Origin: an uncultured Planctomycetaceae bacterium
GTDB lineage: Bacteria; Planctomycetota; PLA2
Assembly: GCA_964570285.1 (NCBI GenBank)
Contig: CAZMXP010000008.1
Location: 36,659-100,658 of the forward strand
Length of the DNA: 64,000 bases
Reading direction: 5' to 3'
A program made the translations under genes and the position numbers. Positions 1 through 39,114 of this stretch are shown piece by piece (position 1 is the stretch's first letter; every line of letters starts with the position of its first letter). Under the pieces are notes generated by a model. It saw nothing but the letters and a program-made list of their open reading frames with translations, did no database searches and had not been told where the DNA came from.

Positions 1-470
1 TCGTCCGCCGGCAGGTGCCGGACGCGAGGTTCCGCATCGTCGGGTCGAAACCCGCTCCCGAGGTGGTGCGGCTCGGACGCGGCGAGGGCGTCGAGGTGAC
101 CGGCCGGGTCGAGGACGTGCGTCCGCTGCTCCTCTCCTCCGCGGTGAGCGTCGCGCCGCTGCGCCTCGGCCGCGGCGTGCCGAACAAGATCCTCGAGGCC
201 CTCGCCCTCGCGCTGCCGGTGGTCACGACGAGCAACGGGGCCGCCGGGCTGGAAATGCAGGCGTTCGAGGGGGCGGACGTCGCCGACACGCCCTCGGAGT
301 TCGCGGACGCGGTCGTGCGCCGCCTGCGGGCCGCCCGCGCCGGGGCCTCGCGCTTCCCCGGCCACCGCAGGGCGCTCGCGCGCCTCTACCCGTGGAGCGG
401 CCTCGCGCGCATCCTCTCCGAGGCCGTCGGCACGGGGTCCCGGGTGCAGCCCCGGAGGGCCGTGCCGTGA
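1..470 (+). CDS. Glycosyltransferase family 4 (GT1 fold), C-terminal fragment; 5' end lies outside the window.
   Basis: ORF 15..470. The motif ...GVPNKILEALALALPVVTT... is typical of the GT4 C-terminal domain. Codon usage matches the neighbouring genes. Confidence 0.65.
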   Translation, partial: VRRQVPDARFRIVGSKPAPEVVRLGRGEGVEVTGRVEDVRPLLLSSAVSVAPLRLGRGVPNKILEALALALPVVTTSNGAAGLEMQAFEGADVADTPSEFADAVVRRLRAARAGASRFPGHRRALARLYPWSGLARILSEAVGTGSRVQPRRAVP

Positions 471-1339: not shown

Positions 1340-2373
1340 GCGACCCTTCGCTGCTCGAGCCCCGGGAGGTGCTGCGGCTGCCGGCCGACCACCCGCCGGT
1401 CCTGCTCGTCGTCATCGACACGGAGGAGGAGTTCGAGTGGGGCGCGGGGTTCTACCGCGAGAAGACGAGCGTGCGCGCGATGCGGGGCATCCCGCGCGTG
1501 CAGGCGGTCTTCGACGAGTTCGGGATCCGGCCGGTCTACGTCGTCGACTACCCGATCGCGACGCAGCGCGAGGCGTTCGAGCCGCTGCGCGCCTTCCAGC
1601 AGGAGGGGCGGGCGGTCGTCGGCACCCACCTCCACCCGTGGGTGAACCCGCCCTTCGACGAGGAGCCGACGCCCCGCAACTCCTATCCCGGCAACCTGCC
1701 TCCGGCTCTGCTCGAGAAAAAGCTCCGCGTGCTCACCGACGCGATCACCGAGACCTTCGGTCGAAGGCCGGATGCGTACAAGGCCGGACGCTACGGGCTC
1801 GGCCCGGGCACCGAGGAGATCCTCGCGCGTCTCGGCTACCGGTTCGATCTGAGCGTCTGCCCGCGCGTGGATCTCCAGCCCGACGACGGGGGGCCCGACT
1901 ACCTCGCGTTCGCGCCGGAGCCCTACCGCTTCGGGCCCGGGGGGCGCATGCTCGAGATCCCGGTCACCGCGGCGTTTGTCGGCCCGCTCGCACGCTGGGG
2001 GGCGCCGCTGCAGCGCGCCGCGCGGCATCCGTGGGGCCGCGCGGCGCGCCTCCCGGCCCTGCTCGCTCGTTCGGGTGCGCTGCGGCGCATCCGCCTCTCG
2101 CCGGAGGGCGTGAGTTTCGAGGACCATCGGAGGGTCACGCGCGCGATGCTCGCCCGCGGCGTGCGGATCCTCACGTTCAGCTTCCACAGCCCCTCGGCGG
2201 CCCCCGGCTTCACGCCCTACGTCGCGTCCGAGGCCGACCTCGAACAGTTCCTTCTCTCCTGCCGCCGATACTTCGACTGGTTCCTCGGCGAACTCGGCGG
2301 CGTGGCGCTGACGCCGTCGGAGATCCATGCGCGATTGGAGGGGGCCACGGGGGTCGGGCTGAGTCGCGCGTGA
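1336..2373 (+). CDS. WalW-like protein of the polysaccharide-deacetylase family.
   Basis: In frame with ORF 1078..2373; GTG start at 1336 overlaps the upstream stop. VLLVVIDTEEEFEWGAGF is characteristic of the WalW-like deacetylase family. Confidence 0.55.
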   Translation: MSDPSLLEPREVLRLPADHPPVLLVVIDTEEEFEWGAGFYREKTSVRAMRGIPRVQAVFDEFGIRPVYVVDYPIATQREAFEPLRAFQQEGRAVVGTHLHPWVNPPFDEEPTPRNSYPGNLPPALLEKKLRVLTDAITETFGRRPDAYKAGRYGLGPGTEEILARLGYRFDLSVCPRVDLQPDDGGPDYLAFAPEPYRFGPGGRMLEIPVTAAFVGPLARWGAPLQRAARHPWGRAARLPALLARSGALRRIRLSPEGVSFEDHRRVTRAMLARGVRILTFSFHSPSAAPGFTPYVASEADLEQFLLSCRRYFDWFLGELGGVALTPSEIHARLEGATGVGLSRA

Positions 2374-2573
2374 GGTGCGGCGCGGCGGCCCGCGGCCGGA
2401 GTGCGAGGTGTCGAGATTCCTGAACAGGCGCGGGCGGGCGGGCCAGGCGCCTCGCGAGGCATCGCGGAATCCCCGCGGCGGCCGGCGCGTTCGGGGTCTC
2501 GCGGCGGTTGTGGTACATCCTTTGCGCTACTCAAGGACGGAACCGCGTTGTGCCGATTCCCCGACAGCCCCCC

Positions 2574-3680
2574 ATGAACAATCCCCCGAGCGCCGCCAGC
2601 CTGGAGAATCCGGCGGATGCCCCCTGCGTGGCGGACGGGGGGGCGGCACTCTCGGTGCGGCCGGCGAAGGAGGGCGACGCCGAGGCGTGGGATGCCTACG
2701 GCGCCCATCACCCGCGCGCGACCTTCTTCCACCAGAGCCGCTGGTGCCGGATCCTGGCGCAGACCTTCCGCCATCCCGTGCGGTCGCTGCTGGTCGAGGG
2801 GGGCGGCGCGATCCGCGGGATCCTCCCGCTCTTCCGCTGCCGCGGCCTGCGCGGGGGGGTCTCCCTCTTCTCGCTGCCGCACACCGTCTATGGCGGCCCG
2901 CTGGCCGACGACGAAGCGGCGGAGCAGGCGCTGCTCGAGGGCGCGCGCAGGCTCGCGCTGGAGGAGGGAGCCCGGCGGATCGAGTTCCGCAACCGCTATC
3001 CCACCTCGCTCGCGCTCGCGCCGCTGGAGGGCTTCGTCACCTTCGAGAAGGAACTGCCGAAGAGCCCCGATCTCTGCTACCGCTCCCTGCCGAAGAAGTC
3101 GCGCGAGGCGATCAACCAGGCCCGCAAGCGGCACAAGCTCGAGGCCGCCTTCTCGACGGACCTCGACACGTTCTACGCCCTGCTCGCGGCCTCCTACAAG
3201 AACCTCGGGACCCCCTTGTTCCCGAAGGTCTTCTTCGAGCGGATCCTCGCGGAGTTCCCGCGCGAGTCGTCGATCCTTCTCGTCCGCCACGAGGGCCACG
3301 CGGTGGCCGCCGTGCTCTCCGTCGTCTTCCGCGGCATCATGATGCCGCTCTACAGCGGCGAGGCGCCGATGGTGGGCCACCTGAAGGCGAACAACTTCAA
3401 GTACCTCGCGCTGATGGAGCGCGCGGTCGAGAGCGGATGCACGCGCTTCGACTTCGGGCGCAGCCGCCTCTCCAACGAGGGGGTCGTCCGCTTCAAGATC
3501 AACCAGGGGTTCGATCCCATCCCGCTGCCCTACCAGGTGGACGGCGCGACGGAGGACCCCGGCAAGGCTGTGGCCGACCCCAACCGCGGCTTCTACGCGA
3601 AGGCCCGGCTGGCGTGGCGGCGGCTGCCCGATGGTGTCGCTCGGTGGGTCGGGCCCCGCCTCGTCCGGTACTTCCCGTGA
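2574..3680 (+). CDS. FemAB-family acyltransferase (GNAT fold) of the kind associated with exosortase/PEP-CTERM loci.
   Basis: ORF 2508..3680. Internal Met at MNNPPSAASL... is the likely start. ...FHQSRWCRILAQTF... matches FemAB-like proteins. Confidence 0.65.
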   Translation: MNNPPSAASLENPADAPCVADGGAALSVRPAKEGDAEAWDAYGAHHPRATFFHQSRWCRILAQTFRHPVRSLLVEGGGAIRGILPLFRCRGLRGGVSLFSLPHTVYGGPLADDEAAEQALLEGARRLALEEGARRIEFRNRYPTSLALAPLEGFVTFEKELPKSPDLCYRSLPKKSREAINQARKRHKLEAAFSTDLDTFYALLAASYKNLGTPLFPKVFFERILAEFPRESSILLVRHEGHAVAAVLSVVFRGIMMPLYSGEAPMVGHLKANNFKYLALMERAVESGCTRFDFGRSRLSNEGVVRFKINQGFDPIPLPYQVDGATEDPGKAVADPNRGFYAKARLAWRRLPDGVARWVGPRLVRYFP

Positions 3681-3696
3681 TTCGCAGGAGTCTCCC

Positions 3697-5019
3697 ATGC
3701 TCAGGATGATTCTCGTACTCGCCCTCTTCGGGGCCGGCACCGTCGCCGGTCTCCAGTCGGCCGTGATCGCGAGCTGCTTCTTCATCTGGAACGACACCTT
3801 CCGCCCCGCCGAGTGGGCCTACTACCACGGGATCCTCCGGCCCGAGACCTTCAAGGCCGTGCACATCGCGACGGCCGTGCTCGCCCTTTCGCTCTTCATC
3901 CGGCCGTGGAAGCGCCGCTGGAACGGGGTGGCCACGGCGATGCTCATCTTCCTCGGCTGGGTCTTCGTCTGCGCGCTGGCGGCGCAGTTCCGCGAGATCG
4001 CGATGGAGAAGGCCGTCACGACGGCGAAGTACATGATCCCGCTGGCGTTCATCTCCGCGACGCTCTGCACGCGGTCGTCCCAGCACCTCTTCCTCTACAC
4101 ACTCGCGGCCTCGGTCGGGATCTGGATGGTCCACCACGGCGTCAACGCGATCGTGGCGAACGAGCCCGAGCCCTACATGGCGATCCGCGGCGGCCAGATG
4201 TCGGACCGCAACGACTTCATGGTCGCGGGGACCGCCTGCATCCCGATGATCCTCTACATCGGGTTCCGGTACGAGGGGCCTGCGCGCAAGTGGGTGCGGC
4301 TCCTCGCGAAGGCCGGCGCCGTCTTCTCGGCCGGCGCGCTCTTCTACAGCGAGTCGCGGGGCGCCGTGGTCGGGTTCTCCGCGCTGCTCCTCTGGTACGC
4401 CGTCTCGACGGGGCGGTTCTTCAAGCGGCTCTTCACCGTGGTGGCCGTCGCCGGGCTCCTCGTCGCCGTCATGCCGGGCTTCGTCTGGGAGCGCATGTCC
4501 ACGATCGAGGTGGGCGAGGATCAGACCGAGTCGTCGGCGGCCAATCGCCTCGTCCACATGAAGACGGCGGTGGACGTGACGCTGGACTACCCCGTGACCG
4601 GGGTCGGTCCGAGCAACTTCCCCATCGTCTCGAGCCGCTACTCGGTCTTCAATGCCGAGCCGCACAGCATCTGGCTGAAGTGCTCCTCGGAGTACGGCCT
4701 GCCGATGCTGGTCTTCTTCCTGCTGCTCGTGGGACGCCTGCTCTTCCGGCTCCGGGCCAGCGCCGCGCTGGCGAGGCGCGCGGGGGACCGGCAGACCGAG
4801 GCCCTCGCCACGACGCTGAACTGCGCCCTCTTCGGATTCCTCGCGACGGGCTCGTTCACGAGCCAGTTCCTGAGCGAGTACATGTGGGCGATCATCGGCC
4901 TCATCGGTGCGTTCCTCGCGACGCCGGTCCAGCACCTCGCCCCGGAGGGCGAACCGGCCGGCGAGGAGCCGTCCCGGTCGGCTGCCGGAGAGCGCCCGGT
5001 CGCCCTGCCTCGCGCCTGA
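3697..5019 (+). CDS. O-antigen ligase-like (Wzy_C) polytopic membrane protein; a putative O-glycosylation ligase of the XrtA-locus type.
   Basis: ORF 3631..5019. ATG at 3697 with GCAGGAG upstream. About 10 predicted TM helices, and a ...HSIWLKCSSEYG... Wzy_C-like motif. Confidence 0.65.
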   Translation: MLRMILVLALFGAGTVAGLQSAVIASCFFIWNDTFRPAEWAYYHGILRPETFKAVHIATAVLALSLFIRPWKRRWNGVATAMLIFLGWVFVCALAAQFREIAMEKAVTTAKYMIPLAFISATLCTRSSQHLFLYTLAASVGIWMVHHGVNAIVANEPEPYMAIRGGQMSDRNDFMVAGTACIPMILYIGFRYEGPARKWVRLLAKAGAVFSAGALFYSESRGAVVGFSALLLWYAVSTGRFFKRLFTVVAVAGLLVAVMPGFVWERMSTIEVGEDQTESSAANRLVHMKTAVDVTLDYPVTGVGPSNFPIVSSRYSVFNAEPHSIWLKCSSEYGLPMLVFFLLLVGRLLFRLRASAALARRAGDRQTEALATTLNCALFGFLATGSFTSQFLSEYMWAIIGLIGAFLATPVQHLAPEGEPAGEEPSRSAAGERPVALPRA

Positions 5020-5040
5020 CGCGAGGGCCTCCCGTTCCCC

Positions 5041-6261
5041 GTGCGCATCCTGACGATCTCCGGCCTGTTCCCGAGCCGGAGTTCGCCGGCTCACGGGGTC
5101 TTCGTCCTCCAGAGGACGAAGGCGCTGCGGGACGCGGGCCATGAGATCCGCGTCCTCGCGCCCGTGCCGTGGGTGCCCCCGGGCCCGGTCCCCGCCCGCT
5201 ACGCCAGGCTGAGGTCCACGCCGCGCGACGAGATCCTCGAAGGGATCCCCGTCCGCCACCCGCGCTACTTCATGGTCCCGAAGATCGGCGTCTACGCGCA
5301 GGATCGGCTCTACGCCCACGGCATCCGGCGGGCGGTCCGCGAGGCGGTAGCCGACTTCCACCCCGACCTGCTCGACGTGCACTACCTCTTTCCGGATGCC
5401 TGCGGCGTGGCGCGCCTGGCGACACGCCTGGGGCTCCCCTACGTCTGCTCCGCGCGCGGCAGCGACGTCAAGGTCCTCGGGCGGATCCCGTTCCTCGCGC
5501 GCCGCATTCGTGGCGCGCTGCTCGGCGCGTCTGCCGTCATCGCCGTCTCGCGCGACCTCGCGGAGACGATGCGCCGTCAGGCCCTGTATGAGGGCGAGAT
5601 CGCGGTGATCCCGAACGGCGTAGACCCCGACGTGTTCCGCCCCCGCAACCGCGCCGAGGCGCGGGGCGCCCTGGGCCTCCCGGTCCGCGGGCGCATCGTC
5701 GTGTGCGTGGGACACGTGGCACCCGCGCACGGGCAGGACCTGATCGTGGAGGCGTTCCAGAGTCCGGACGCGCCCCCGGACGTGACGGCGTACCTGATCG
5801 GGGGCGGCCGGGGGCTCGACGCGATGCGCCGCGAGGTGGCGCGGCGGGGACTTGCGGGACGCATCCACCTGCCGGGCCCCGCGCCGCATGCGCAGATCCC
5901 GCTCTGGTTCGCCGCCGCCGACGCGTCGCTCCATCCCGGTTCGCATGCCGGCTGCCCGAACGCCGTGCTCGAGTCGCTCGCATGCGGCACCCCCTGCCTC
6001 GCGAGCGACATCCCCGAGATGCGCGAGGTGATCGACGCCGACCGTCAGGGAGTGCTCGTCGCGCGGGAGCCCGCGGCGATCGCGCGCGGGATCCGGGCGC
6101 TCCTCGAACGGTCGGCGGCCGCGGAGGTTCGGCCCGCGGCGCCGCGCTCCTGGGGCGACGTGGCGCGCGAGATCACCGCCCTGTTCGAGGGGGTGCGGTC
6201 GCCCGCGGCGGCGAAGGCGCCGCGCTCGCTGTCTCCGCGAACCGGCGGTGCCAGAGGTTGA
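5041..6261 (+). CDS. Glycosyltransferase family 4.
   Basis: GTG start MRILTISGLFPSRSSP... is the N-terminal GT4 motif. ...ESLACGTPCLASDIPEMREV... is the C-terminal GT1 motif. Confidence 0.8.
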   Translation: MRILTISGLFPSRSSPAHGVFVLQRTKALRDAGHEIRVLAPVPWVPPGPVPARYARLRSTPRDEILEGIPVRHPRYFMVPKIGVYAQDRLYAHGIRRAVREAVADFHPDLLDVHYLFPDACGVARLATRLGLPYVCSARGSDVKVLGRIPFLARRIRGALLGASAVIAVSRDLAETMRRQALYEGEIAVIPNGVDPDVFRPRNRAEARGALGLPVRGRIVVCVGHVAPAHGQDLIVEAFQSPDAPPDVTAYLIGGGRGLDAMRREVARRGLAGRIHLPGPAPHAQIPLWFAAADASLHPGSHAGCPNAVLESLACGTPCLASDIPEMREVIDADRQGVLVAREPAAIARGIRALLERSAAAEVRPAAPRSWGDVAREITALFEGVRSPAAAKAPRSLSPRTGGARG

Positions 6262-8173
6262 ACATCATCAGGATCCAGAGCTCCGTCGAGCGGTTGCGCA
6301 GGCCCGACTGGTGCTGGTTCCAGAGCTTCTCGACCTCCTCCCGCCGGAAGAAGTGGCGCGTCCCCTCGCTCTCCAGCAGCAGGTCGCGCGCGTACTCACG
6401 CATCTCGCCGCGCAGCCACTCGGGCAGCGGGACACCGAACCCCATCTTCGGCCGGTAGAGCACCTCCCGCGGCAGGTGCGGCTCCAGCGCCTTCTTGAGG
6501 ATCCACTTCTTCTCGCGGCCCCGGATCTTCATCGACGAGGGCACGCGCGCGGCGAGTTCCATGAATTCGTGGTCAAGCACCGGGCAGCGCACCTCGAGCG
6601 AGACCGCCATGCTCGCGCGGTCGACCTTCACGAGGATGTCCTCGCAGAGGTAGGTCTTGATGTCGAGATAGAGCAGGCGCGAGAGGTGGTCCTCGGCCTG
6701 CGCGGCCGCGTAGTGGTGGCGGAAGAGGTCGATGCTCCGGTGGTCGCCGAGGGCGGCGCGCACCCCGGGCTGCAGCAGTTCGGCCTTCTGCTCCTCCTTG
6801 AACGCGGAGACGGAGTGGAAGTAGGCATCCACCGGATCGCGCGCGAGGTTTCCGAGGAAGGCCTTGCCGCGGAAGACCTGCGGCAGCCAGTCGGCCTTCG
6901 GGTAGAGCTTGCCGACGGCGCCGAAGAGCGGACGGCGCAGCCAGCGGGGGAACCAGCCGCGGACGAGGTTCTCGCGCATGTCGAACCAGTAGCGGCGGTA
7001 GCCGGCGAAGTTCTCGTCCCCGCCGTCGCCCGAGAGCGCGACGGTCACCTTCTCCCGCGCGGTCTTCGAGACGTAGTAGGTCGGGACCGCGGAGGCGTCC
7101 GCGAACGGCTCGTCGTAGTGCCACGCGAGCTTCTCGACGATCGGGATCGCCTCGGGCGTGACCGCGTACTCGTGGTGGTCGGTGGCGAAGCGCTTCGCGA
7201 TGAGGCGCGCGTACTCCGACTCGTCGTAGGCGGCCACGGAGAACGAGATGGACGACGTCTTCACGGGCCCGGAGGAGAGGCCGGCCATGAGGCCGACGAC
7301 GGCGGAGGAGTCGACCCCGCCGCTCAGGAAGGCGCCGAGGGGCACCTCGCTCATCATGCGGATCTTCACGGACTCGCGCAGCTTCTCGACGATCTCCTCG
7401 CCGAGCGCCTCCGCGGACTCCTCGCGGCGCGGGACGAAGGGGAGATCCCAGTAGCAGCTCGTGCGGATGTCGCGCTCGGTGACCACCGCGTAGTGCGCCG
7501 CCGGGAGCTTCCGCACGTCGCGGAAGATCGCGCGCGGCGACGGCACGTAGAGCAGCGACAGGTAGTCGCTCACCGCGGTCGGGTCGATCTCCCGCGGGAT
7601 GCCCGGCACCTCGAGGATCGACTTCATCTCGGAGCCGAACGCGAAGCGCCCCTGGTGCGCGGCGTAGTAGAGGGGCTTCTTGCCGAGGCGGTCGCGGGCG
7701 AGGAAGAGCACGCGCTTGCGCTCGTCCCAGATCGCGTAGGCGAACATGCCGCGCATGCGGCGCACGCTCTCCTCGCCCCACTCCTCCCACGCGTGCACGA
7801 TCATCTCCGTGTCCGAGTTCGTGCGGAAGCGGTGGCCGAGGCGCTCCAGCTCCGCCTTGAGCGCCTCGAAGTTGTAGATCTCCCCGTTGAAGGTGATCCA
7901 GACGGTGCCATCCTCGTTGGAGAGGGGCTGCTGGCCCGTCGCGAGGTCGATGATGGAGAGGCGCCGGTGGCCGAAGCCGACGTGACCCTGCCCCGGCAGG
8001 GCCGAAAGCCCGTGGACCGGCACGTCGGGGCAGGCGGCGCGCGCGTCGGGCCGGTTGAGGAAGTAGCCCTCCTCGTCGGGGCCGCGGTGGACGACCGCGC
8101 GCGTCATCCGCACGAGAACCTCGGGATCGACGGGGCGCCCGTCCCGCTGGTAGAGCCCGGCAATGCCGCACAT
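6173..8173 (-). CDS. asnB: Asparagine synthase (glutamine-hydrolysing)-family amidotransferase; exosortase-A-associated amidotransferase-1-like.
   Basis: MCGIAGLY... gives the class-II GATase Cys2 nucleophile. SGGVDSS PP-loop. Strong RBS GGAGGAAGGAACC upstream of the ATG. Confidence 0.85.
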   Translation of the reverse strand: MCGIAGLYQRDGRPVDPEVLVRMTRAVVHRGPDEEGYFLNRPDARAACPDVPVHGLSALPGQGHVGFGHRRLSIIDLATGQQPLSNEDGTVWITFNGEIYNFEALKAELERLGHRFRTNSDTEMIVHAWEEWGEESVRRMRGMFAYAIWDERKRVLFLARDRLGKKPLYYAAHQGRFAFGSEMKSILEVPGIPREIDPTAVSDYLSLLYVPSPRAIFRDVRKLPAAHYAVVTERDIRTSCYWDLPFVPRREESAEALGEEIVEKLRESVKIRMMSEVPLGAFLSGGVDSSAVVGLMAGLSSGPVKTSSISFSVAAYDESEYARLIAKRFATDHHEYAVTPEAIPIVEKLAWHYDEPFADASAVPTYYVSKTAREKVTVALSGDGGDENFAGYRRYWFDMRENLVRGWFPRWLRRPLFGAVGKLYPKADWLPQVFRGKAFLGNLARDPVDAYFHSVSAFKEEQKAELLQPGVRAALGDHRSIDLFRHHYAAAQAEDHLSRLLYLDIKTYLCEDILVKVDRASMAVSLEVRCPVLDHEFMELAARVPSSMKIRGREKKWILKKALEPHLPREVLYRPKMGFGVPLPEWLRGEMREYARDLLLESEGTRHFFRREEVEKLWNQHQSGLRNRSTELWILMMFNLWHRRFAETASAAPSPPRATAPPRTGR

Positions 8174-8214
8174 GGTTCCTTCCTCCGCGCCCGCGGCGCG
8201 CCGCTAACGAGCCC

Positions 8215-10071
8215 TCATCGGCTGGCCCCGTCCCGCGCTTGACGCGCCGCCGCCCGCTCCCCGTGCGTGCGGAACCAGAGCTCGAGCATCATCAGCGTCC
8301 AGATCATGACGCCGTAGTATCCCGCGTGGCCCGTCCGGTGCAGCTCGAGAATCTCGTCGAGGAAGGCGGGACGCACGATTCCGCGCCCGCGCAGCCCGGC
8401 GAGGCAGTCCGAAGCGAGGGCCTGCAGCGGCTCGTGGGTCCGCAGCCAGACGCCGAACGGCAGCCCGAAGCCGTGCTTCTGCTTCCGGAGGATCTTCTCC
8501 GGCAGGAAGTCCGCGAGCGCCCACTTGAAGAACCAGCGGAGCTGGTAGCCCTTCACCTTCAGGTCGGAGGGCAGCCGCGCCGCGAAGGCGACCATCGCGT
8601 CGTCGAGGAAGGGGTAGGCGACCTCCACGCCCGCGAGCCCGCAGGAGCCGTTGACCTTCACGAGGTCGTTGTCCGCGAGCGTGAACTTCAGATCGAGCGC
8701 GAGCAGCCGGTTCAGGCTCGAGTCGGCGTCCGCGCCGTCGTAGACCTCGCGCGCGAGGCGGATCGGCTCCTCGCGGTCCACCGAGGCGAGGAACGAGGGC
8801 TCGAAGACCCGCTCTGCGCCGAGCATGCGGAGCAGCGTGTAGTTGTAGAGCCGGTCGGGCAGGCGCGTGTTCGCCTGCCGGATGTAGCTGCGCGCCTTGC
8901 GCACGAGCGCGAGCCGTTCGCCGAACGGGAAGCGGCGCAACAGCGGCTCGAGGAGCGCGCGGAAGAGGCGCGGCACGCGCCCGTACACGTCGAACACCCT
9001 CTGGCTCGCGTAGCGCTCGTTGCCGCCGAAGATCTCGTCGCCGCCGTCGCCGGCCAGCATCCTGTGGACGCCGTCGTCGGCCGCGAGGCGCGCGCAGAAG
9101 TAGGTCGGCACCGCCGACTCGTTCGCGAAGGGGTTCCCGTGGGCCGCGGCGATGCGCGGGATCGCGGCGAGCACGTCGTCGGGGGTGACGTAGTACTCGT
9201 GGTGGTCGGTCCCGAAGTGGCGCGCCGCCGTCCGCGCGAACTCCATCTCGTCGTAGCCCTCCGCGGCGAACCCGATCGAGTAGGTCTTCGCGGGCCGTCC
9301 GAGCACCTGCGTCAGGATCCCGGCGACGGTCGAGCTGTCCGTGCCGCCGCTCAGGAAGGCGCCGGCCGCGGCGCTGCCGGCCGAGCGCTCCACGGCCCCG
9401 CGCAGCAGCCCGCGGAACTCGCGCTTGAGTTCCTCGAGGGGGGCGCGGCGCCCCCGGTAGACGGTCCGCCCGAAGAGGGCGCGCTCCGTGCGGCCGTCCC
9501 GGACGTGGAGGTATTCGCCGGGCAGCAGGCGCGACTGCCCGCGCAGCACCGAACGGGGCGCGGGAACCTGATGGAAGAAGACGTAGTCGTAGATCGCCTG
9601 CGGATCGACGCCGCCCCCGCCGGGAAGGCAGAGGGGGGAGGAACCGAACAGCAGGCAGCCCTCCTCGCGTTCGAAGTAGAGGGGGAAGCAGCCGCAGCGG
9701 TCGATCGCGAGGAGCGCCTCGGAGCCGTCGGTCCGGAGGATCGCGGCGGCGAAGAGACCCGTGACGCCGGCGAGCAGGCCCGGGCCGCGGTCGACGAAAC
9801 CCTGGGCGAACGCCGCGGCGCCACCCTCCCGTTCCGCGCGCTGGGCGAGGGCGGCGTCCGCGAACGAGGGGCGACCGACGACCGCGACGAGGAGGTCGTC
9901 GCCTTCGTGGAGAGTCGCGTTGCCGTGCAGGGCGGCGGCGGCGAGACCCGCGGCCGGGCCGAGCTTCGTGCGGACCGCCGCCCCGCCGAACGCCCTCGCG
10001 GCCCGCTCGATGCGCGCGGCACCCTCCGACTCGCCGGCGACGCCGCCGACCCACCCTCCGATGCCGCTCAT
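8215..10071 (-). CDS. Asparagine-synthase-family paralog 2, with the nucleophile Cys replaced by Ser.
   Basis: MSGIGGW... aligns to MCGIAG. SGGTDSS PP-loop. Full-length AsnB architecture. Confidence 0.8.
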   Translation of the reverse strand: MSGIGGWVGGVAGESEGAARIERAARAFGGAAVRTKLGPAAGLAAAALHGNATLHEGDDLLVAVVGRPSFADAALAQRAEREGGAAAFAQGFVDRGPGLLAGVTGLFAAAILRTDGSEALLAIDRCGCFPLYFEREEGCLLFGSSPLCLPGGGGVDPQAIYDYVFFHQVPAPRSVLRGQSRLLPGEYLHVRDGRTERALFGRTVYRGRRAPLEELKREFRGLLRGAVERSAGSAAAGAFLSGGTDSSTVAGILTQVLGRPAKTYSIGFAAEGYDEMEFARTAARHFGTDHHEYYVTPDDVLAAIPRIAAAHGNPFANESAVPTYFCARLAADDGVHRMLAGDGGDEIFGGNERYASQRVFDVYGRVPRLFRALLEPLLRRFPFGERLALVRKARSYIRQANTRLPDRLYNYTLLRMLGAERVFEPSFLASVDREEPIRLAREVYDGADADSSLNRLLALDLKFTLADNDLVKVNGSCGLAGVEVAYPFLDDAMVAFAARLPSDLKVKGYQLRWFFKWALADFLPEKILRKQKHGFGLPFGVWLRTHEPLQALASDCLAGLRGRGIVRPAFLDEILELHRTGHAGYYGVMIWTLMMLELWFRTHGERAAARQARDGASR

Positions 10072-10107
10072 CGCGCCTCCTGCGTCATGTTTCGTCCGGT
10101 TGCAAGG

Positions 10108-11880
10108 TCAATCTTGAATCGCGGCGCGCGCGGCATACTCGAAGGAGATCAGGCGCCCGAGCAGGGGGAGCGGCACGCCCGGCCCGCTCCGCAGGGCGTC
10201 GAGGAAGGCCTCGTAGCGGGCACGGTCGAGCAGCGGCAGCGACGCCATCGACGCCGGCGCGAGCCAGTCCCCCGCACCCCCTGCCCTCCATCGCGCGAGC
10301 AGGGCGCCCTCGTGCGGATCGCGCTCGCGCCTCCACCACTTCGCCTTCGCCCGCCGCACCACCGAGGCGGGCCAGCGCAACGCGCCGGGAAGCAGGCGCG
10401 GCAGATGCCTCGCGCGCAGCGGGAGCGGGGGAAAGCCGCTCGCGAGGGGGACCTGCCGCAGCGGCGCCGCAAGGCCGCCGAGGATCTTCCGCAGCAGGTT
10501 GCCGTGGAGCCGCTCGGCCGACGGGATCCGGTAGAGCACTTCGAGGGGCCGCCGGAGCAGCAGCGGCGAGCTGTTGCCCCAGATCTCGTTCGTCGCGCTG
10601 CCGATCGCCCCTTGCCAGCACTGCATGCGCAGGTGCAGGTAGGCGTGGTCGAAGAGCACCGGCAGCGGCTCGCCGCGTCGCGGCGCGAGGGCCGCCTCGA
10701 GCATCGCGCGGTAGTGTGCCGCGGGATCGGGCGCCGCCGGGAGGAAGGGGGGCACGAGCAGCGCGTGGGTGAACCGTCGCAACAGCGCGCCCGCGACATC
10801 GCCCCCCGTCTTGCCGAGGTGCTGCGACGTCCACCAGTAGTTCCGGAAGACCTCGCCGCCGGAGCCGTTCACGCTCATGCCGTACTCCGCCGCATGCGGC
10901 TCGTGGATCGCGGCGATGGCGGCGTATTCGATGGCGTCGTACTCGCCGTCCACCCGGGCGGCCGCGGCGAGCACGCGCCCGAAGTCGGCCTGCGCCTCGA
11001 GGCCGCGCTCGCGCGGCTCGTGCACGAGCTTCAGCCCGAGGCGACGCGCGAGTTCCGCCGCGATGCGCACGTCGGCGTGGCCGGCGTCGCCGGTCACGGT
11101 CACATCGAAGCTGCGGCCGAGTCCGTGGAGCAGGCCGACGACGAGGCGGGAGTCGAGCCCGCCCGTGAGGTCCGGCAGCAGTCGGGCCGACGCGGGCGCG
11201 AAGGCGTCGAGGCAGGATCGGAGCGCCGAGACGAGCTGCTCCGCGCTGGCCGCGCGCTCCCCGGCGCAGGAGGGCGGGACGAGGCGCGCGGCGTCCTCGT
11301 CGATCGCCACACAGCGACCGCCGCGGAACCGGTAGCGCCTTGCGCCCCCGAGGCGCCTCACGCCCACGAAGGGGGTCCGGTCCCCGAAGAGGGTGCCCGA
11401 GCCGAGGAACTCCCAGAACGAGAGGGGGTCGGGGGGCGCGCGCCGGGCGCGGGCGAGCGCGACGGGAGAGGTCCCGAGAAGGAGGCCGTCCTCCGCCTCG
11501 GCGGCATAGACGTGCAGGCGACCGAAGTGGTCGGGCGCCACGATCAGTTCGCCGCTCGCCGTGTCGGCGTAGACGAGCGCATAGGTGCCGTCGAGGCGGT
11601 CGAGCTCCTCGGGCCCCCTCGTTTCGATGAGGCGCAGCAGGGCGGCGTTGTCGTCGAGGCCGCAGTCGGGGTGGTGCCAGCTCCCCGCGGAGAGGAGCCA
11701 GCCGCCCTTCGAGAGGGCCGGAGCGGCACCGGAGCCGTTGAGGCGTGCGAACATGACGAACCCCGGCCCCTCGGCGGCCACCCGGAGACCTTTCTCCTCC
11801 GTGATGTGCCGGCGCGCGCGCTCGAATCCCTCGGGAGCCGGGCGTCCCGGCGACGGCTGCTCGACGAGAAAGGCACCCAC
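10108..11880 (-). CDS. Asparagine-synthase-like paralog 3 (synthetase/PP-loop domain; no recognisable N-terminal glutaminase nucleophile).
   Basis: ...LTGGLDSRLVVGLL... PP-loop-like motif and overall AsnB_C similarity. GTG start. No Cys near the N-terminus. Confidence 0.65.
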   Translation of the reverse strand: MGAFLVEQPSPGRPAPEGFERARRHITEEKGLRVAAEGPGFVMFARLNGSGAAPALSKGGWLLSAGSWHHPDCGLDDNAALLRLIETRGPEELDRLDGTYALVYADTASGELIVAPDHFGRLHVYAAEAEDGLLLGTSPVALARARRAPPDPLSFWEFLGSGTLFGDRTPFVGVRRLGGARRYRFRGGRCVAIDEDAARLVPPSCAGERAASAEQLVSALRSCLDAFAPASARLLPDLTGGLDSRLVVGLLHGLGRSFDVTVTGDAGHADVRIAAELARRLGLKLVHEPRERGLEAQADFGRVLAAAARVDGEYDAIEYAAIAAIHEPHAAEYGMSVNGSGGEVFRNYWWTSQHLGKTGGDVAGALLRRFTHALLVPPFLPAAPDPAAHYRAMLEAALAPRRGEPLPVLFDHAYLHLRMQCWQGAIGSATNEIWGNSSPLLLRRPLEVLYRIPSAERLHGNLLRKILGGLAAPLRQVPLASGFPPLPLRARHLPRLLPGALRWPASVVRRAKAKWWRRERDPHEGALLARWRAGGAGDWLAPASMASLPLLDRARYEAFLDALRSGPGVPLPLLGRLISFEYAARAAIQD

Positions 11881-12232: not shown

Positions 12233-12260
12233 TTGACCGCCTAGAGGAGGGGGCTATGCT
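12233..12260 (+). promoter_or_regulatory. Candidate sigma70-type promoter (TTGACC, 16 nt spacer, TATGCT) about 45 nt upstream of riboswitch copy 1.
   Basis: Motif read directly from the sequence: ccTTGACCgcctagaggagggggcTATGCTtcc. Confidence 0.3.
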
Positions 12261-12304
12261 TCCCGCGGAGACCCGTGCATCGGCATCGCCTCGGCGACGC
12301 AGTG

Positions 12305-12410
12305 CGAAGGCTCCGATAAAGGCAACCCCGGGGGAACCCGGAGGACGCAAAGCTATTAGGGCCCGTTCCCCTTCAGTGCGAAGGGGCGGGGCAGCCAGCT
12401 ACCGAAGAGT
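12305..12410 (+). promoter_or_regulatory. c-di-GMP-I (GEMM) riboswitch-like 5' leader, copy 1, upstream of lipoprotein 12475.
   Basis: Conserved GEMM blocks AAAGGCAAcCC, a GNRA hairpin CCGGG-GGAA-CCCGG, GACGCAAAGCUA, a P3 hairpin CCCCUUC-AGUGC-GAAGGGG, and a 3' ...AGCUACCGA. Collinear with the Vibrio Vc2 aptamer as recalled. A hairpin plus GGAGG RBS follows. Confidence 0.65.
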
Positions 12411-12474
12411 TCACGTACGCGGGCGCGTGCGGGGTGGAGACTCCCCGGGCGCCGTTCGCCGGAGGTAGGAGTCC

Positions 12475-15400
12475 ATGTATTCGATGACGCGCCGGGCGCT
12501 GGCCCGGCTCATCCTGGGGGCCGCCGTGCTCTGCGGCTGCGTCCCGTTCGCGGAGACGACCCCGTCCGGGTCGGCCTCCTCGGTCGGGCTCGTGGTCGAT
12601 GCGGCGTCGCTCTCGGTAGCCGAGGGAGGCACGGCCGTGCTGGGCCTGCGGCTCTCGGAGAATCCCGGTCGTGCCGTCGCGGTGACGGCGAAACTGACCG
12701 GATCGACCGGTCCCTTCGCGATCACGGAGGGTGCGAGCCTTCCGTTCGGCGTCTCGGACTGGGACACCGTGAAGTTCGTCCGCGTGCTCTCGAGCACGGA
12801 CACGAACACGACCCACGACACGACGACGCTGAGGATCGAGGTGGACGGCCGCTTCTTCCTGAGCGTCGGAGTCACCGAGGTGGATGGAGGCACGAGCGTG
12901 CCCCCGCCCGAGCCGCCTCCCGCCGAGGAGCCCCCGGCCGAGGAGCCGCCCGCTCCCGCCCCGGTCCCGCCGGCACCCGTTCCGCCCGTGCCGCCCGTCG
13001 ATCCGGGGGAGCCGCAGGAGGGCGTCACGCTGACGGTGAAGGATGCCTCGGGCATCGGCGCGATCGACTATCCGGTCACCGCGATCATCCCCGTCAGCTA
13101 CGGGATCTACCAGGACACGTCCCGGTTCCGCATCGTGGACGGCCAGGGGAACCCGGTGGCGGCCCAGTTCGAGGTCCTCAACCGCTGGCCGGTGCGCGAC
13201 AACAGCATCCGGCACGTCGTCGCCCACTTCCAGGCTTCCGTCGGCGCCGCCAGCAAGGCCTACTACGCCTTCCAGACGAAGGGCGCCGGGCCCGCGCCGC
13301 AGAAGGCGGTCCGCGTGACCGACGGTTCGGGCGTCGTCACGGTGGACACGGGGGCCCTCAGGTTCACGATCAAGAAGAGCGGCTTCAACCTCTTCGATGA
13401 GGTCTGGCTCGATACGAACGGCGACGGCAGCTACGCCGCCTCCGAGCGCATCGTCGCGCCGAACGGCGATGTCGGCGCCACGCTCACCGATCGCCACGGC
13501 AACAAGCAGCGCGCCAGCGACCGGACCGACCTGCGGGTCGTGATCGAGGAGAGCGGACCGATGCGGAGCGTCATCCGCGTGAGCTCGCTGAGCAAGTTCT
13601 TCAGCGCGAGCGACCACCGCCACGGCTTCGCCGCACGCATCTACGCCTACGCCGGCAAGTCCTTCGTCAAGGTGGACTACCAGCTCCAGAACTCGGCGAA
13701 GAACGCCCGCTACAGCGCCCCTCTCTACTTCGACGACGTGTCGCTGACGCTCCGGCCTTCGCTGACGAGCCCCACCGCCCGCTTCGCGGCGGGCGCGGGC
13801 AACGTCTGGTCGGGCGGCGTCAGCAGCGGCCGCTACCTGCTCCAGAACTCGCTGACCGCGACGACGGTGAATCCCTCGGGAGGAGGCTCCGCCCTCCTCA
13901 CCGGGACCAACGTCGCCGCCGAGGCGTCCTGCGCGTGGGGCGACCTGTCCGACTCCCAGCGCGGCGTCTTCGTCACGGTCCGCCACATGGCGGAGATGTG
14001 GCCGAACGCGCTGGAGGTCTCGCCGGACAACACGGTGACCGTCGGCCTCTGGCCGAAGTACAGCGCGCAGTACCACAACGGCGCGATGACCGAGTCGGGA
14101 CTCTACTGGCTCGAGGACATGCAGCAGGTCTACAAGGAGTCGCTCATCTACTTCCACGGGGCGAACGTCGCCTCGACCGAACTGGACCGTCTCGCGAAGA
14201 CCTTCCAGTACCACCCGATCCCCTTCGTGCCGATCGCGGAGTACGCACGCACGAAGGTCACCCTCGACCTGGGCGGGATCGTGCCGATCACCGAGCCGGT
14301 GGGCGGTACCGACACCCGTCGGATCCTCTTCACGCCTTCCTACTACCGGCAGGAGTCCGTCACGCCGGGGAACACCCGCTACAACTTCGGCTGGATGAAC
14401 TTCCTCGGCGACGTGGCGCGCAAGCGTCCCGGCGGCGCGGGCGGCATCTTCTACAGCTCGAGCCGGATCATCGCGACCGAGCGGGTCGACGAGTGGCTGA
14501 CCGGCGAAGGCGCCGCGATCGGCGAGCTCAACTGCCGTCCCCAGTGGATCGCGGAGTACAAGTATCCCGACGACTACGCGCTCCTCCAGCCGTCGCAGGA
14601 TCCCTACGGCTCGCGTTCGTGGCGCGCGCACGTCACGGGCAGCGAACCCGACCTGCCCAACGTCGTCGACTACCTCCCCGGCACCGGCCACGGCGGCTGG
14701 TCGCCGCGGGACAACCAGCACGGCTGGTTCTACCACGTCGAGGAGTTCTACAACCTCTCCGCGAATCCTTGGATCCGCGACTGGTACGAGTTCATCGGCG
14801 AGTTCCGCAAGACGGAACGCTCCAACCCCGGCCTGTCGAACTGGAGCGTGCTCTCCAAGCAGGGCTGGGAGTCCGTCCGCGGGGAGGCCCACGCGTTCGC
14901 GCATGCGATGCAGGCCTTCCGCGTCACGGGCAACAAGTCGATCATCGAGTGGGCCCGCATGCGGCTCGACAGCTTCGAGTCGCGCTTCGACCCCGAGTGG
15001 GGCATGTTCATGAGCGGCGGAGACTGGGACAACAAGGGCTCGGTCTTCGAGCACGGCTACCTGACCAAGGCGCTGAGCCAACTCTACGAGGAGGCGGAGA
15101 ACGGCGACCGCGAGATCCAGGACCGGACCTTCCACCTCGTGTGGGGGGCCATGGCCTGGAACGACGGCCATGCCACCTTCGGCTACCACGTCACCAACCG
15201 GAACGCCACGGGCTACCCCTACTCCAGCGCCGGCTCGGCGCTGGTCACGGGCGATCCCCACGCCTGGGTGGCGTGGAAGTTCGGCGCCCCCCAGTACCTG
15301 GCCACGGTGAACGGCTACATCGACACGGGCCTGAACGGCGGCAGTCCGCCCTACCACGACATCGCCGACCTGAGGAACTGGACGGGCGGTGCGTGCGGTC

Positions 15401-15768
15401 GGGTGACGCAGTGGGTCCGGAAGTATCCGCCCGTGGCGGACGGCCCTGCGAAGGTGTCCAACCTCTCGGCCCGCACGGCGAGCGGCAAGGTGGAGATCAG
15501 CTTCACGACCCCCGCCACCGCGACGCGCGTGCATGTCGTCTACTCCACGCTCCCGATCTCCGCGACCTACACCAAGGACGCGGCGAAACGGAATCCGTGG
15601 GGCTGCAAGGCGGTCCCGAACACGCTCGTCTGCACGCCCGGTGCGACCCAGTCGCTGCAGTTCGGCGGCGCGCCCTCGGGCAAGACGATCTACGTGGCCG
15701 TCATCATGTTCAACGCGCAGGGGCACATGAGCCCGCTCTCCAACGTGGCGACGGTGACGGCACCGTAG
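12475..15768 (+). CDS. Large secreted lipoprotein (1097 aa) with a Pro-rich linker and multiple beta-rich domains; possibly a polysaccharide-lyase or hydrolase, function unknown.
   Basis: Signal peptide with lipobox LCGC. PPPEPPPAEEPP... linker. RBS GGAGGTAGGAG 8 nt upstream. Long, uniform-codon-usage ORF. Confidence 0.8.
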   Translation: MYSMTRRALARLILGAAVLCGCVPFAETTPSGSASSVGLVVDAASLSVAEGGTAVLGLRLSENPGRAVAVTAKLTGSTGPFAITEGASLPFGVSDWDTVKFVRVLSSTDTNTTHDTTTLRIEVDGRFFLSVGVTEVDGGTSVPPPEPPPAEEPPAEEPPAPAPVPPAPVPPVPPVDPGEPQEGVTLTVKDASGIGAIDYPVTAIIPVSYGIYQDTSRFRIVDGQGNPVAAQFEVLNRWPVRDNSIRHVVAHFQASVGAASKAYYAFQTKGAGPAPQKAVRVTDGSGVVTVDTGALRFTIKKSGFNLFDEVWLDTNGDGSYAASERIVAPNGDVGATLTDRHGNKQRASDRTDLRVVIEESGPMRSVIRVSSLSKFFSASDHRHGFAARIYAYAGKSFVKVDYQLQNSAKNARYSAPLYFDDVSLTLRPSLTSPTARFAAGAGNVWSGGVSSGRYLLQNSLTATTVNPSGGGSALLTGTNVAAEASCAWGDLSDSQRGVFVTVRHMAEMWPNALEVSPDNTVTVGLWPKYSAQYHNGAMTESGLYWLEDMQQVYKESLIYFHGANVASTELDRLAKTFQYHPIPFVPIAEYARTKVTLDLGGIVPITEPVGGTDTRRILFTPSYYRQESVTPGNTRYNFGWMNFLGDVARKRPGGAGGIFYSSSRIIATERVDEWLTGEGAAIGELNCRPQWIAEYKYPDDYALLQPSQDPYGSRSWRAHVTGSEPDLPNVVDYLPGTGHGGWSPRDNQHGWFYHVEEFYNLSANPWIRDWYEFIGEFRKTERSNPGLSNWSVLSKQGWESVRGEAHAFAHAMQAFRVTGNKSIIEWARMRLDSFESRFDPEWGMFMSGGDWDNKGSVFEHGYLTKALSQLYEEAENGDREIQDRTFHLVWGAMAWNDGHATFGYHVTNRNATGYPYSSAGSALVTGDPHAWVAWKFGAPQYLATVNGYIDTGLNGGSPPYHDIADLRNWTGGACGRVTQWVRKYPPVADGPAKVSNLSARTASGKVEISFTTPATATRVHVVYSTLPISATYTKDAAKRNPWGCKAVPNTLVCTPGATQSLQFGGAPSGKTIYVAVIMFNAQGHMSPLSNVATVTAP

Positions 15769-15780: not shown

Positions 15781-16674
15781 TCACACTTCCGCGGGCGGCG
15801 CACACCATGCGCCGCCCGCTCTGTTTTCCCCGGGCGCCGCGGCTCCGGCGCGATCGCAGGTCTGGAGCAGGAGGCACCCGCGGGGACGCTCCGCGAGCAG
15901 CAGCGCGAGGCACTTCGCCACGTAGGTGGCGTCGACGGCGAGCCCCGCGTCCGCGGCGGCGGCCATCGCCGCGCCGGAGCCCGCGCTGGGCTCCCCGTAG
16001 GCGCCCTCGGCGGCGACCACGCGAAGCCTGACGTTGCCGCGCGGACGATCGCGCCCGATCAGCCGCAGCGCGGCGTGCGCGCGCCGCCAGAGGAACCAGC
16101 CGCCGATCCGGTCGGCGACGCGCACGGCGACGACTTCGCAGCGGGCGCCGCGCAGCATCAGGCCCGCGAGGAGGCCGCTGGTCGTCGTGCCGGTGCCGAG
16201 CGGCACGTAGATCCGCTCCGGGATCGCGGCGAGCTCCTGCACCATCGCCGCGTAGCCGAGCGCGCCGCGGGCGCTCGCGCCCCCAGGCGGGATGATGCGC
16301 GTGCCCCGCCGCCAGAGCCTCGCGGTCGCGAGCAGCGCCCCCCCGCTCCCCCCCACCTCGACCACGCGGTCGGCGATCCCCGGCAGCGAGGCGAGCCGCG
16401 CCGACCTCCTCCCCCTGCGCACGATGACGAGATCGCACGCCGCCCCGACGCGCGCCGCGTGGACCGCCGTCGCGTGCGCGTGGTTCGCGCTCAGGCTCGA
16501 GTAGGTGAGCACGCGGCGCGGCGAGCCGGCGAGCAGGAACTCGAGCGCCCGCGCCTTGTTGCCGCCGCAGAGGTCGTCGCGCTTGACGAGCACCGGCAGC
16601 CCGCCGATGAGGAACTCCTCCACCGGCGTCGGCCTCACGCCGAGATCCACGCGCGGGACGGGCCATCCCTCCAT
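15781..16674 (-). CDS. PLP-dependent enzyme of the ACC deaminase / D-cysteine desulfhydrase family.
   Basis: ...VKRDDLCGGNKARALEFLLAG... (the PLP-lysine GGNK motif). Confidence 0.7.
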   Translation of the reverse strand: MEGWPVPRVDLGVRPTPVEEFLIGGLPVLVKRDDLCGGNKARALEFLLAGSPRRVLTYSSLSANHAHATAVHAARVGAACDLVIVRRGRRSARLASLPGIADRVVEVGGSGGALLATARLWRRGTRIIPPGGASARGALGYAAMVQELAAIPERIYVPLGTGTTTSGLLAGLMLRGARCEVVAVRVADRIGGWFLWRRAHAALRLIGRDRPRGNVRLRVVAAEGAYGEPSAGSGAAMAAAADAGLAVDATYVAKCLALLLAERPRGCLLLQTCDRAGAAAPGENRAGGAWCAPPAEV

Positions 16675-22679: not shown

Positions 22680-23669
22680 CTAGTGGGGCGCCGCCTTCAG
22701 CCCCTCGAGCATCTGCTTCGCCCGCTCGGCGGTCTTGAGCCCCTCGTGCTTCTTCAGGAACCTCTCGAGCTTGTCCGCCACCTCGGCGATCTTCTTCGCG
22801 CGGTTGCCGGCCTCGGCCTTCTCCGCGGCGATCTTGTCGAGCTCCTTGCTCGCCGACATCTCCTTCTTCACCGCGGGGTCCGCCTTCAGCTCCTTTTCAT
22901 GCGTGTCGGCCCATGTCGCGTCGACCGTCCCCTTGAAGTGCTTGCTCACGAGGTCGAGCGCGGCGAAGACGCGGTCGTAGCTTCCGAGCTTCTCGCCCTC
23001 CTCGACCTCGCGCTTCCAGTAGGCGCGGTGCTTCTCGACGCGGCCGATCAGGTAGTGCGCGTCGGCCTCGGCCTCGCGCAGGCCGTCCTTCGCGAGCGAT
23101 TCCGCCGCGCCGAGATCGCCCTTCGCGAACGCGGCCGACGCGGACTTCAGCGCCGCGTCGAGGGGACGCAGGTAGAAGTCCTTCACCTTCTTCAGGTGCT
23201 TCTCGATCTCGCCCTCCGTCAGCGACGCGGGGTGGCCCTCCCACGCGACGGTTCCGTCGGGCGCGACGAGGTAGGCGTGCGGGATGCCGCCGCTGCCATA
23301 GGGCGTCTGCTCGGAGATCAGCCCGACGCTATAGGTGATGCCCTTCTGCGGAACGAAGGGCTCGATCTTCTCCGCATCCTCGCTCGTGATCGCGAGGATC
23401 CTCAGCCCGTCTTTCGCGAAGCTCGCACGGAGCTCGTTGAGGTGGGGGATCGCCCCCACGCAGGGGGGTCACCACGTCGCCCAGAACTCGACGAGCAGGA
23501 GCTTCCCGCGCAGGTCGGCAACGGAGTCGCCCTCGCAGGCGTTGAGCCACTTCGCCACCTTGAAGTCGGGGGCTTCCTTGCCCCGGAGGGACTGCCACTC
23601 CGCGCGAGCCGGACTGGCCGCGAGAAGCGCAAGAGTCGCAACGATTGCCAGTGTGCGCATGGGGCGCAT
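22680..23669 (-). CDS. Periplasmic TlpA/ResA-like thioredoxin-fold protein with an in-frame TGA at the first Cys of the CxxC motif (W-[TGA]-P-P-C); a selenocysteine-protein candidate, with a Lys/Glu-rich helical C-terminal extension.
   Basis: ORFs 23469..23822 and 22680..23459 are in the same frame, separated only by TGA (23469-23471). Read-through gives ...LLLVEFWATW-U-PPCVGAIPHLNEL... A GUGGGGG-CGAU-CCCCCAC hairpin begins 10 nt after the UGA. Signal peptide MRPMRTLAIVATLALLAA. Confidence 0.55.
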
Positions 23670-23706
23670 TCTACAACGGCGCGTCCCTTCGCGCCCCGCG
23701 ACGCCG

Positions 23707-25071: not shown

Positions 25072-25079
25072 GGGAACTC

Positions 25080-39084: not shown

Positions 39085-39114
39085 GCCCGCGGATTGTACG
39101 GACCCGCCCCCCCT

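Follow-up and report, generated by a model that had tools for sequence, protein, structure and literature searches.

Two near-identical c-di-GMP-I riboswitches predicted before secreted lipoprotein genes at an exopolysaccharide locus of a probable planctomycete

The stretch analysed here, 64,000 nucleotides of contig CAZMXP010000008.1 (assembly GCA_964570285.1; hereafter the window), carried two genes for secreted lipoproteins, each preceded by an RNA element of the cyclic di-GMP (c-di-GMP)-I, or GEMM-I, riboswitch family, with a set of exopolysaccharide (EPS) genes adjoining the first of them. The GC content of the window was 71.7%, and real reading frames were identified by their third-position GC. 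The named homologues of both proteins came from metagenome-assembled genomes of Planctomycetota, and the host is probably a planctomycete. The two aptamers, closed by a helix (P1) that their flanks form, and the two genes were placed as follows.

12311-12409, + strand: c-di-GMP-I aptamer 1 (Rfam match 12311-12406 plus the GAG of the P1 3' strand; 52.7 bits, E-value 1.8e-07)
12475-15768, + strand: gene 1, for a 1097-amino-acid lipoprotein (Cys22) with an N-terminal beta-sandwich, a Pro-rich linker, a body like that of polysaccharide lyase family PL26 (PcRGLX-like) and a C-terminal beta-sandwich
43343-43440, + strand: c-di-GMP-I aptamer 2 (Rfam match 43343-43437 plus the GAG of the P1 3' strand; 55.3 bits, E-value 4.3e-08)
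43502-45259, + strand: gene 2, for a 585-amino-acid lipoprotein (Cys26) containing a pair of Big_7 Ig-like domains and a six-bladed Kelch beta-propeller, with a Pro-rich linker

Scanning the whole window against Rfam 15 with cmscan gave exactly two matches above gathering score, both to RF01051 (c-di-GMP-I/GEMM-I; gathering score 35 bits), both full-length (model positions 1-87 of 87) and both on the + strand, while the c-di-GMP-II family (RF01786) had no match at its gathering threshold in the window. An earlier interpretation made from the letters alone (the sequence-only reading) had claimed two near-identical GEMM-I elements at these places and had proposed scoring them against RF01051; both regions exceeded the threshold, the intervals it gave enclosed both matches, and every sequence block that it listed was present in both elements. 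Pairwise alignment and an identity matrix showed the aptamers to be 96% identical. Two of the four differing positions formed a linked G-C to A-U compensatory change at the base of the second hairpin (AAAGCUA...CAGCUACC versus AAAACUA...CAGUUACC). The conserved blocks consisted of AAAGGCAA, a GGAA-capped hairpin, GACGCAAA, a CCCCUUC/GAAGGGG hairpin and YUACCGA.

In an alignment of eight leaders from the window and its relatives, AAAGGCAA, ACGCAAA and AGCCAG.UACCGAAGAG were invariant, and RNAalifold recovered both aptamer hairpins, with double (compensatory) changes at seven pairs. The first hairpin was capped by a GNRA tetraloop, GGAA in the window and GUAA or GAAA in relatives, and was joined to the second by an AAA linker; a tetraloop receptor in the second hairpin is found in only about half of the GEMM-I family (PMC1950547). 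The P1 helix (CUC/GAG plus CG/CG) was predicted in the minimum free energy (MFE) or constrained folds of all leaders, and both of its strands were invariant or wobble-compatible, with no covariation.

Alignment to the Rfam consensus placed the equivalents of G20, A47 and C92 of the Vc2 aptamer, which are its c-di-GMP-contacting nucleotides (PMC5888326; PMC4744006), at 12321, 12349 and 12403 in aptamer 1 and at 43353, 43381 and 43434 in aptamer 2. All three were intact in both copies and lay within the invariant blocks of the eight aligned aptamers. An RF01051 match alone leaves ligand specificity unfixed, since GEMM-Ib aptamers also score as RF01051, and the elements might sense 3',3'-cyclic GMP-AMP (cGAMP) instead, like the GEMM-Ib variants of Geobacter. 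The cGAMP-selective variants carry an A at the G20 position, whereas G stood at 12321, at 43353 and in all aligned relatives, together with canonical C92 and A47, and cGAMP sensing is highly improbable here. In Vc2, G20 Hoogsteen-pairs with one guanine of c-di-GMP (PMC5888326).

The association of aptamer and gene recurred outside the window. Homologues of one or the other gene had an RF01051 aptamer before them in eight further cases, spread over four assemblies or metagenomes besides this one, for a total of ten aptamers in five. PL26-like homologues stood behind such an aptamer at loci L001 (84% amino acid identity), L003 (82%), L196 (GCA_012032415.1; 61%) and L009 (42%), as did the Kelch orthologue at L189 (80%). 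At L192 (GCA_021776785.1), the PL26-like and Kelch genes were adjacent on one strand (48% and 47% identity) and each had its own aptamer, at 5831-5925 and 9449-9536 (56.8 and 63.3 bits), the two being 76% identical to each other. On a further contig (P0123), both proteins co-occurred next to Wzy and GT4 genes.

Aptamer identity within the window lineage was 95-100% across genes and genomes, as opposed to 69-73% with L192; aptamer 2 was 100% identical to the L189 aptamer, and aptamer 1 was 95-98% identical to those of L001 and L003. This pattern is suggestive of a leader that underwent duplication or homogenisation inside the lineage, both copies having stayed intact since then. Instead of two working regulators, the pair could also be a recent repeat copy or a relic in decay, in that the aptamers are near-identical although the genes downstream are unrelated, the similarity spans the -10 box to the Shine-Dalgarno (SD) sequence, and an identity of 96% within the genome, set against the lower values with the L192 counterparts, fits leader duplication or gene conversion. 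However, the copy-specific G-C/A-U difference was also present in the orthologous leaders of a second genome, so that both copies would be older than the split and kept intact; both genes had their own aptamer in the distant L192, and all contact nucleotides were preserved. A copied repeat or relic of this kind is thus very improbable.

The aptamers shared the strand of their genes, ended 68 and 64 nt before the respective ATG and had promoter-like sites upstream of them, which is the position of a 5' untranslated region. Taken together with membership in the Rfam family, the kept ligand-contact nucleotides, the pairing conserved across lineages and the compensatory stem changes, this makes it likely that both elements function as class I c-di-GMP riboswitches, acting in cis on the lipoprotein gene that follows, with copy 2 possibly acting also on a GT4 glycosyltransferase gene. 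Judged from sequence, both lipoproteins would then be under direct second-messenger control.

The signal peptide of protein 1 ended in LCGC, with Cys22 nearly invariant among homologues, and the protein matched Pfam PcRGLX_2nd (PF21345) at 35.9 bits, above the cut-off. Foldseek found the PL26 exo-rhamnogalacturonan lyase 5XQ3 to be the best match of its AlphaFold model (predicted local distance difference test, pLDDT, of 81), over about 980 aligned columns and with an E-value of 3.6e-19; a sequence search of the PDB returned no match, the link to PL26 coming from the fold comparison only. By its modelled structure, protein 1 is distantly homologous in fold to a PL26 polysaccharide lyase, with the three-part architecture of N-terminal barrel, central beta-sandwich and alpha/alpha toroid. 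Protein 2 had the lipobox LAAC, a Big_7 match of 54.3 bits and a Kelch match under the curated cut-off (E-value 4e-08); its model (pLDDT 85) was a six-bladed Kelch propeller, and no specific enzyme match was found for it. The two proteins ended in ...VTAP and ...FRNS and had no PEP-CTERM tail. The lipobox cysteines, Pro-rich linkers and beta-rich or propeller domains were thus as the sequence-only reading had described them. Its broader label of surface, adhesion or polysaccharide-acting proteins can be refined: protein 1 has the PL26-like lyase fold and is not adhesin-like, and protein 2 combines Big_7 domains with a Kelch propeller. Behind gene 2 lay the glycosyltransferase gene mentioned above.

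45326-46717, + strand: GT4 glycosyltransferase gene behind the Kelch gene; its true start is probably further downstream

There was no terminator-like site between the Kelch gene and this GT4 gene, and the same gene order was found in L189 and on the P0123 contig. The two may be co-transcribed.

The EPS locus said to adjoin the riboswitch genes proved to be of the XrtA/PEP-CTERM type and occupied positions 392-11880. Its markers above the NCBIfam cut-offs were a TIGR03006 deacetylase (310.8 against 276.2), a TIGR03019 FemAB protein (267 against 260.35) and a TIGR03108 amidotransferase (837.1 against 816.9). The set further held a Wzy_C/DUF5935 polymerase/ligase-like gene, a GT4 gene and three asparagine-synthase-like amidotransferase genes, one of them being that above the TIGR03108 cut-off. 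The window reading frames that were scanned included no recognisable exosortase, and the gene may lie outside the window. Copy 2 was surrounded by genes for a beta-helix protein, a Wzx-type flippase, GT4 enzymes and sugar-nucleotide enzymes, and by an FkbH/MaoC/MacB-type cluster.

Each aptamer was part of a 5' leader of roughly 205 nt, with the following features besides the aptamer.

12233-12260, + strand: promoter-like site of leader 1, TTGACC-16-TATGCT (1 found by scan against 0.1 expected in shuffles)
12422-12453, + strand: GC hairpin of leader 1, GGCGC..CGGGG-UGGAGACU-CCCCG..GCGCC (CGGGG/CCCCG at 12430-12447), with no U-tract behind it
12461-12471, + strand: tandem SD of leader 1, GGAGGUAGGAG, 3 nt before the ATG
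43263-43290, + strand: promoter-like site of leader 2, TGGACG-16-TATCCT, weaker (8 of 12 matches, under the scan cut-off) and read by eye; it aligns with promoter 1
43463-43495, + strand: two overlapping hairpins of leader 2, GGGGA/UCCCC at 43463-43475 and the 9-bp CCUCCGGGC/GCUUGGAGG at 43474-43495
43491-43501, + strand: tandem SD of leader 2, GGAGGUUAGGA, directly before the ATG

Homology between the two leaders extended over about 240 nt, from the -10-like box (GGGCTATGCT / GGGCTATCCT) to the tandem SD. The promoter that the sequence-only reading had placed before copy 1 was detected by the scan, and its arrangement was repeated in the orthologous leaders L001, L003 (first hexamer TTGACT) and L196; transcription of leader 1 is predicted to start at about 12266-12268. 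A similar promoter-like site, TTGCCG-16-TAGCCT, was present in L192, and the counterpart of promoter 2 in L189 read TGGACG-16-TATTCT. Every leader had a GC hairpin of lineage-specific sequence that ended 2-9 nt before the tandem SD. The hairpins downstream of the aptamers, the GGAGG ribosome-binding site and the ATG starts at 12475 and 43502 had all been noted in the sequence-only reading and were all present. In leader 2, the 9-bp hairpin covered the GGAGG of the SD, which was paired with that region in about 0.55-0.64 of the ensemble. The tandem motif, GGAGGU(N1-2)AGGA, is unusual and was kept in nearly all homologous leaders (L001, L003, L189, L192 and L196), with variants in L192_RGL, L196 and L009. 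Together with a GGAG near the 5' end, it gives three GGA motifs per leader, which might be a protein-binding (CsrA-like) pattern.

The terminator scan found no + strand terminator-like site in either leader, its only matches there being antisense artefacts of the first aptamer hairpin. An expression platform based on an intrinsic terminator was rejected, given the lack of such a site and the lack of a U-tract after the hairpins of any leader. One clear terminator was found past gene 1.

15791-15819, + strand: canonical intrinsic terminator, a 12-bp GC stem followed by TCTGTTTTCC, 23 nt past the gene 1 stop codon (1 found against 0.0 expected)

It indicates that the host uses U-tract terminators, which are absent from the riboswitch leaders. 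The same terminator overlapped the 3' end of a convergent PALP-family gene. The GC hairpins could still be terminators without a U-tract, or Rho-entry controls, in which case regulation would be transcriptional and not translational. A stable hairpin stood between aptamer and SD in every leader despite the differing sequences, its lower stem being preserved, by reading, by a compensatory G-C to U-A change between window leader 1 and L001, and the P1 3' strand with its linker was marginally complementary to the hairpin in the PL26 leaders of the window lineage (shuffle fractions 0.05, 0.11 and 0.02). We nevertheless regard transcriptional control through these hairpins as unlikely, as no U-tract follows any of them, the one clear terminator of the window is canonical with a T-tract, and the hairpins end so close to the SD. 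The short GC hairpins are real features of the leaders, with the refinement that they are not intrinsic terminators.

Upstream of the aptamers, both leaders began with a further foldable domain.

12266-12315, + strand: 5' domain of leader 1, CGGAG-A-CC (12266-12273) facing GG-CUCCG (12309-12315, the P1 5' strand) and enclosing a conserved UCGC/GCGA hairpin; MFE -25.6 kcal/mol, z-score -2.7
43296-43347, + strand: 5' domain of leader 2, CGGAG-G-CC facing GG-A-CUCCG and enclosing an ACCGC/GCGGU hairpin; MFE -26.8 kcal/mol, z-score -2.1

The outer part of this domain was an element of the form YGGAG-N-CC(G), located 5 nt past the -10 box in most leaders (12266-12273 and 43296-43303) and complementary to the P1 5' strand, (C)GG-N-CUYCG. 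RNAalifold chose the helix between the two in both alignments (8/8 and 7/7 leaders), with single wobble-compatible changes only, and the element closed the isolated 5' domain in eight of nine folds (z-scores -1.0 to -3.5). The enclosed hairpin showed U-A to C-G covariation among the aligned leaders. When full leaders were folded with either the 5' helix or P1 forced, the energies differed by no more than about 3.6 kcal/mol in five of the eight, as one would expect of a switch that its ligand can tip. The modelling suggests a bistable core of the leader, in which the P1 5' strand has a choice of two partners.

The mechanism that we favour would involve no intrinsic termination and would turn on the two alternative partners of that strand. 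Paired with YGGAG-N-CC(G), it would close the 5' hairpin domain and leave the aptamer not competent for binding; paired with the P1 3' strand (CG..GAG), it would form the ligand-bound state, and c-di-GMP would tip the nearly isoenergetic balance toward P1. The switch would most probably act on how translation starts at the tandem GGAGGU(N)AGGA site, which directly follows the GC hairpin. The direction leans weakly toward switching ON by c-di-GMP, to which we give somewhat less than an even chance; an output of another kind, such as mRNA stability or Rho, is possible, and switching OFF is slightly less probable than that. The lean toward ON comes from the SD being buried by default, in the folded Kelch leaders and L009, within a local CCUCC/GGAGG hairpin, from the complementarity of the released 5' element to the anti-SD region (shuffle fractions 0.022 and 0.002), and from the EPS context. 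If the switch is ON, EPS-processing proteins would be co-expressed with the EPS locus at high c-di-GMP.

Several observations weigh against this scheme. Modelled SD accessibility showed no consistent shift between the forced P1 and forced 5'-helix states of the eight leaders, and a thermodynamic call between ON and OFF was rejected on this ground. The MFE fold of the window Kelch leader in its P1 state retained the SD hairpin, and other candidate anti-SD pairings were not above shuffled controls. The 5' helix lacked true compensatory (double) changes, and its conservation may have another reason. The transcription start is a prediction, and a start 2-3 nt further downstream would truncate the 5' element in most leaders. 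In L009, the 5' element paired with a nearby local CUCCG and not with the P1 5' strand. Lastly, many homologues elsewhere had no riboswitch, namely those at L005-L023 except L009 and at L193-L195 by Rfam, and those at L024-L069 by pattern search.

The fall of SD-to-AUG unpaired probability in the P1 state relative to the 5'-helix state, seen in three to five of the eight leaders (0.29 versus 0.57 in L003), also counts against activation and would point to an OFF switch. In such a switch, formation of P1 would free the 5' domain, which would then pair with the initiation region or expose the 5' end to decay, and the lyase-like enzyme would be a matrix-degrading or dispersal factor made at low c-di-GMP; dispersal is among the roles that polysaccharide lyases can have. 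When P1 was forced, the 5' domain paired with the SD-to-AUG region in window leader 1, L001, L003 and L192_Kel, and the position of the 5' element at the predicted transcription start means that opening its helix would leave a single-stranded 5' end. Yet the long-range pairing between 5' domain and initiation region, striking by eye in L001, L003 and L192_Kel, was rejected as a candidate, not being above shuffles in six of the eight leaders. The SD buried by default in three leaders is a better fit to an activator, and EPS biosynthesis genes surround the two genes and keep synteny with them. We consider an OFF switch possible but doubtful.

Two other pairings were noted in the leaders. The aptamer 3' strand (CUACC or CCAGC) was rejected as an anti-SD: RNAalifold had proposed CUACC with GGUAG, but the duplex energies were no better than those of shuffles except in L192_Kel. 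In most leaders, GCGA(A) directly before P1 could be paired with UCGC directly before the SD; this possible helix had one apparent compensatory change (window leader 2 versus L189) and was weak in L003 and L196.

At L009 (3540-3560), a second CUCCG followed 12 nt after the conserved CGGAG, and their local pairing leaves the P1 5' strand (CUUCG) free. This leader kept the 5' element despite a promoter distance larger by 23 nt and an unrelated insert. The local CGGAG/CUCCG pairing may be a natural variant that disables the proposed competitor helix.

The 5'-terminal YGGAG-N-CC could alternatively be the true expression platform, lying upstream of the aptamer, such that c-di-GMP binding opens or closes a 5'-terminal stem-loop and controls the accessibility of the 5' end; we hold this to be improbable. 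Control would then run via mRNA decay, or via a released GGAG that resembles an SD and, as a decoy, sequesters the CCUCC anti-SD, and not via a terminator or direct masking of the SD. GEMM-I typically binds very tightly, and the same competitor would bring its affinity into the cellular range of c-di-GMP.

Of the remaining genes in the window, those on the - strand at 36696-43274, between the riboswitch genes, encoded an FkbH-like protein, a MaoC dehydratase, a MacB/FtsX-type ATP-binding cassette exporter pair and a right-handed beta-helix (NosD-like) protein. The NosD-like gene was divergent from riboswitch 2, and the gene order of this region was also found in L189. A group on the - strand at 22680-25951 comprised an extracytoplasmic function (ECF) sigma factor (25436-25951), a small reading frame, a PDZ-domain protein and a thioredoxin-like protein, and was syntenic in L001; the PDZ-domain protein had only partial, sub-threshold matches to DegP/HtrA proteases.

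A pattern search with GACGCAAARCTA...CAGCCAGYTACCGA over genome contigs was too general, yielding more than 119 loci that were mainly GEMM-I of Bacillota and included no close relatives. The GEMM-I variant that the window aptamers carry, GACGCAAARCUA ... CAGCCAGYUACCGA, was widespread in Bacillota, for example at the Paenibacillus/Bacillus loci L076, L080, L085, L106, L112, L123, L127, L129 and L142, often as two copies on one strand about 85-190 nt apart from start to start (tandem aptamers).

If the assignment holds, the window contains a conserved element of a c-di-GMP regulon in a poorly studied, probably planctomycete, lineage, with two co-occurring secreted lipoproteins each under its own GEMM-I inside an exosortase-type EPS locus. 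Second-messenger signalling would be linked to the processing of extracellular polysaccharide without a protein effector, and two uncharacterised protein families would be nominated as matrix-related factors. Leaders without a terminator and with a conserved upstream competitor of P1 may also offer a tractable model for GEMM-I in high-GC bacteria. Knowledge of the riboswitch class itself is unchanged, and the finding is well supported and fairly ordinary. The literature search returned no paper linking GEMM-I to PEP-CTERM loci, to polysaccharide lyases or to these protein families.

Compared with known systems, protein 1 resembles PcRGLX of Penicillium chrysogenum (PL26; PDB 5XQ3) in overall architecture, with a Foldseek template modelling (TM) score of 0.57 on the target and the PcRGLX_2nd match, whereas identity is only 12-13% and protein 1 adds a lipoprotein signal, the N-terminal beta-sandwich, the Pro-rich linker and the C-terminal beta-sandwich. 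GEMM-I is reported to be common in some Planctomycetes and to be associated with extracellular and membrane functions (PMC1950547). The window aptamers share with the type examples of Vibrio cholerae, Vc2 (tfoY) and Vc1 (gbpA), the two-hairpin aptamer, the GNRA cap, the AAA linker, G20/A47/C92 and the P1 formed by the flanks, as well as the location in 5' untranslated regions of genes for extracellular or membrane proteins, but differ in their high-GC, probably planctomycete, host and in leaders without a terminator. Bc1/Bc2 of the Bacillus cereus group and Cd1 of Clostridioides difficile belong to the same aptamer class and likewise have surface or secreted targets. Cd1 acts via a rho-independent terminator with a U-tract. 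Bc1 is likewise reported to act via a rho-independent terminator with a U-tract (PMC11218506), and the window leaders differ from all of these in having no such terminator. The riboswitch class has been known since 2007-2008, and the association with these genes is a new detail. Unlike the usual downstream platform of GEMM-I, the candidate competitor of P1 in the window leaders precedes the aptamer and is located at the predicted 5' end, and this terminator-less arrangement is a possible variant of the class.

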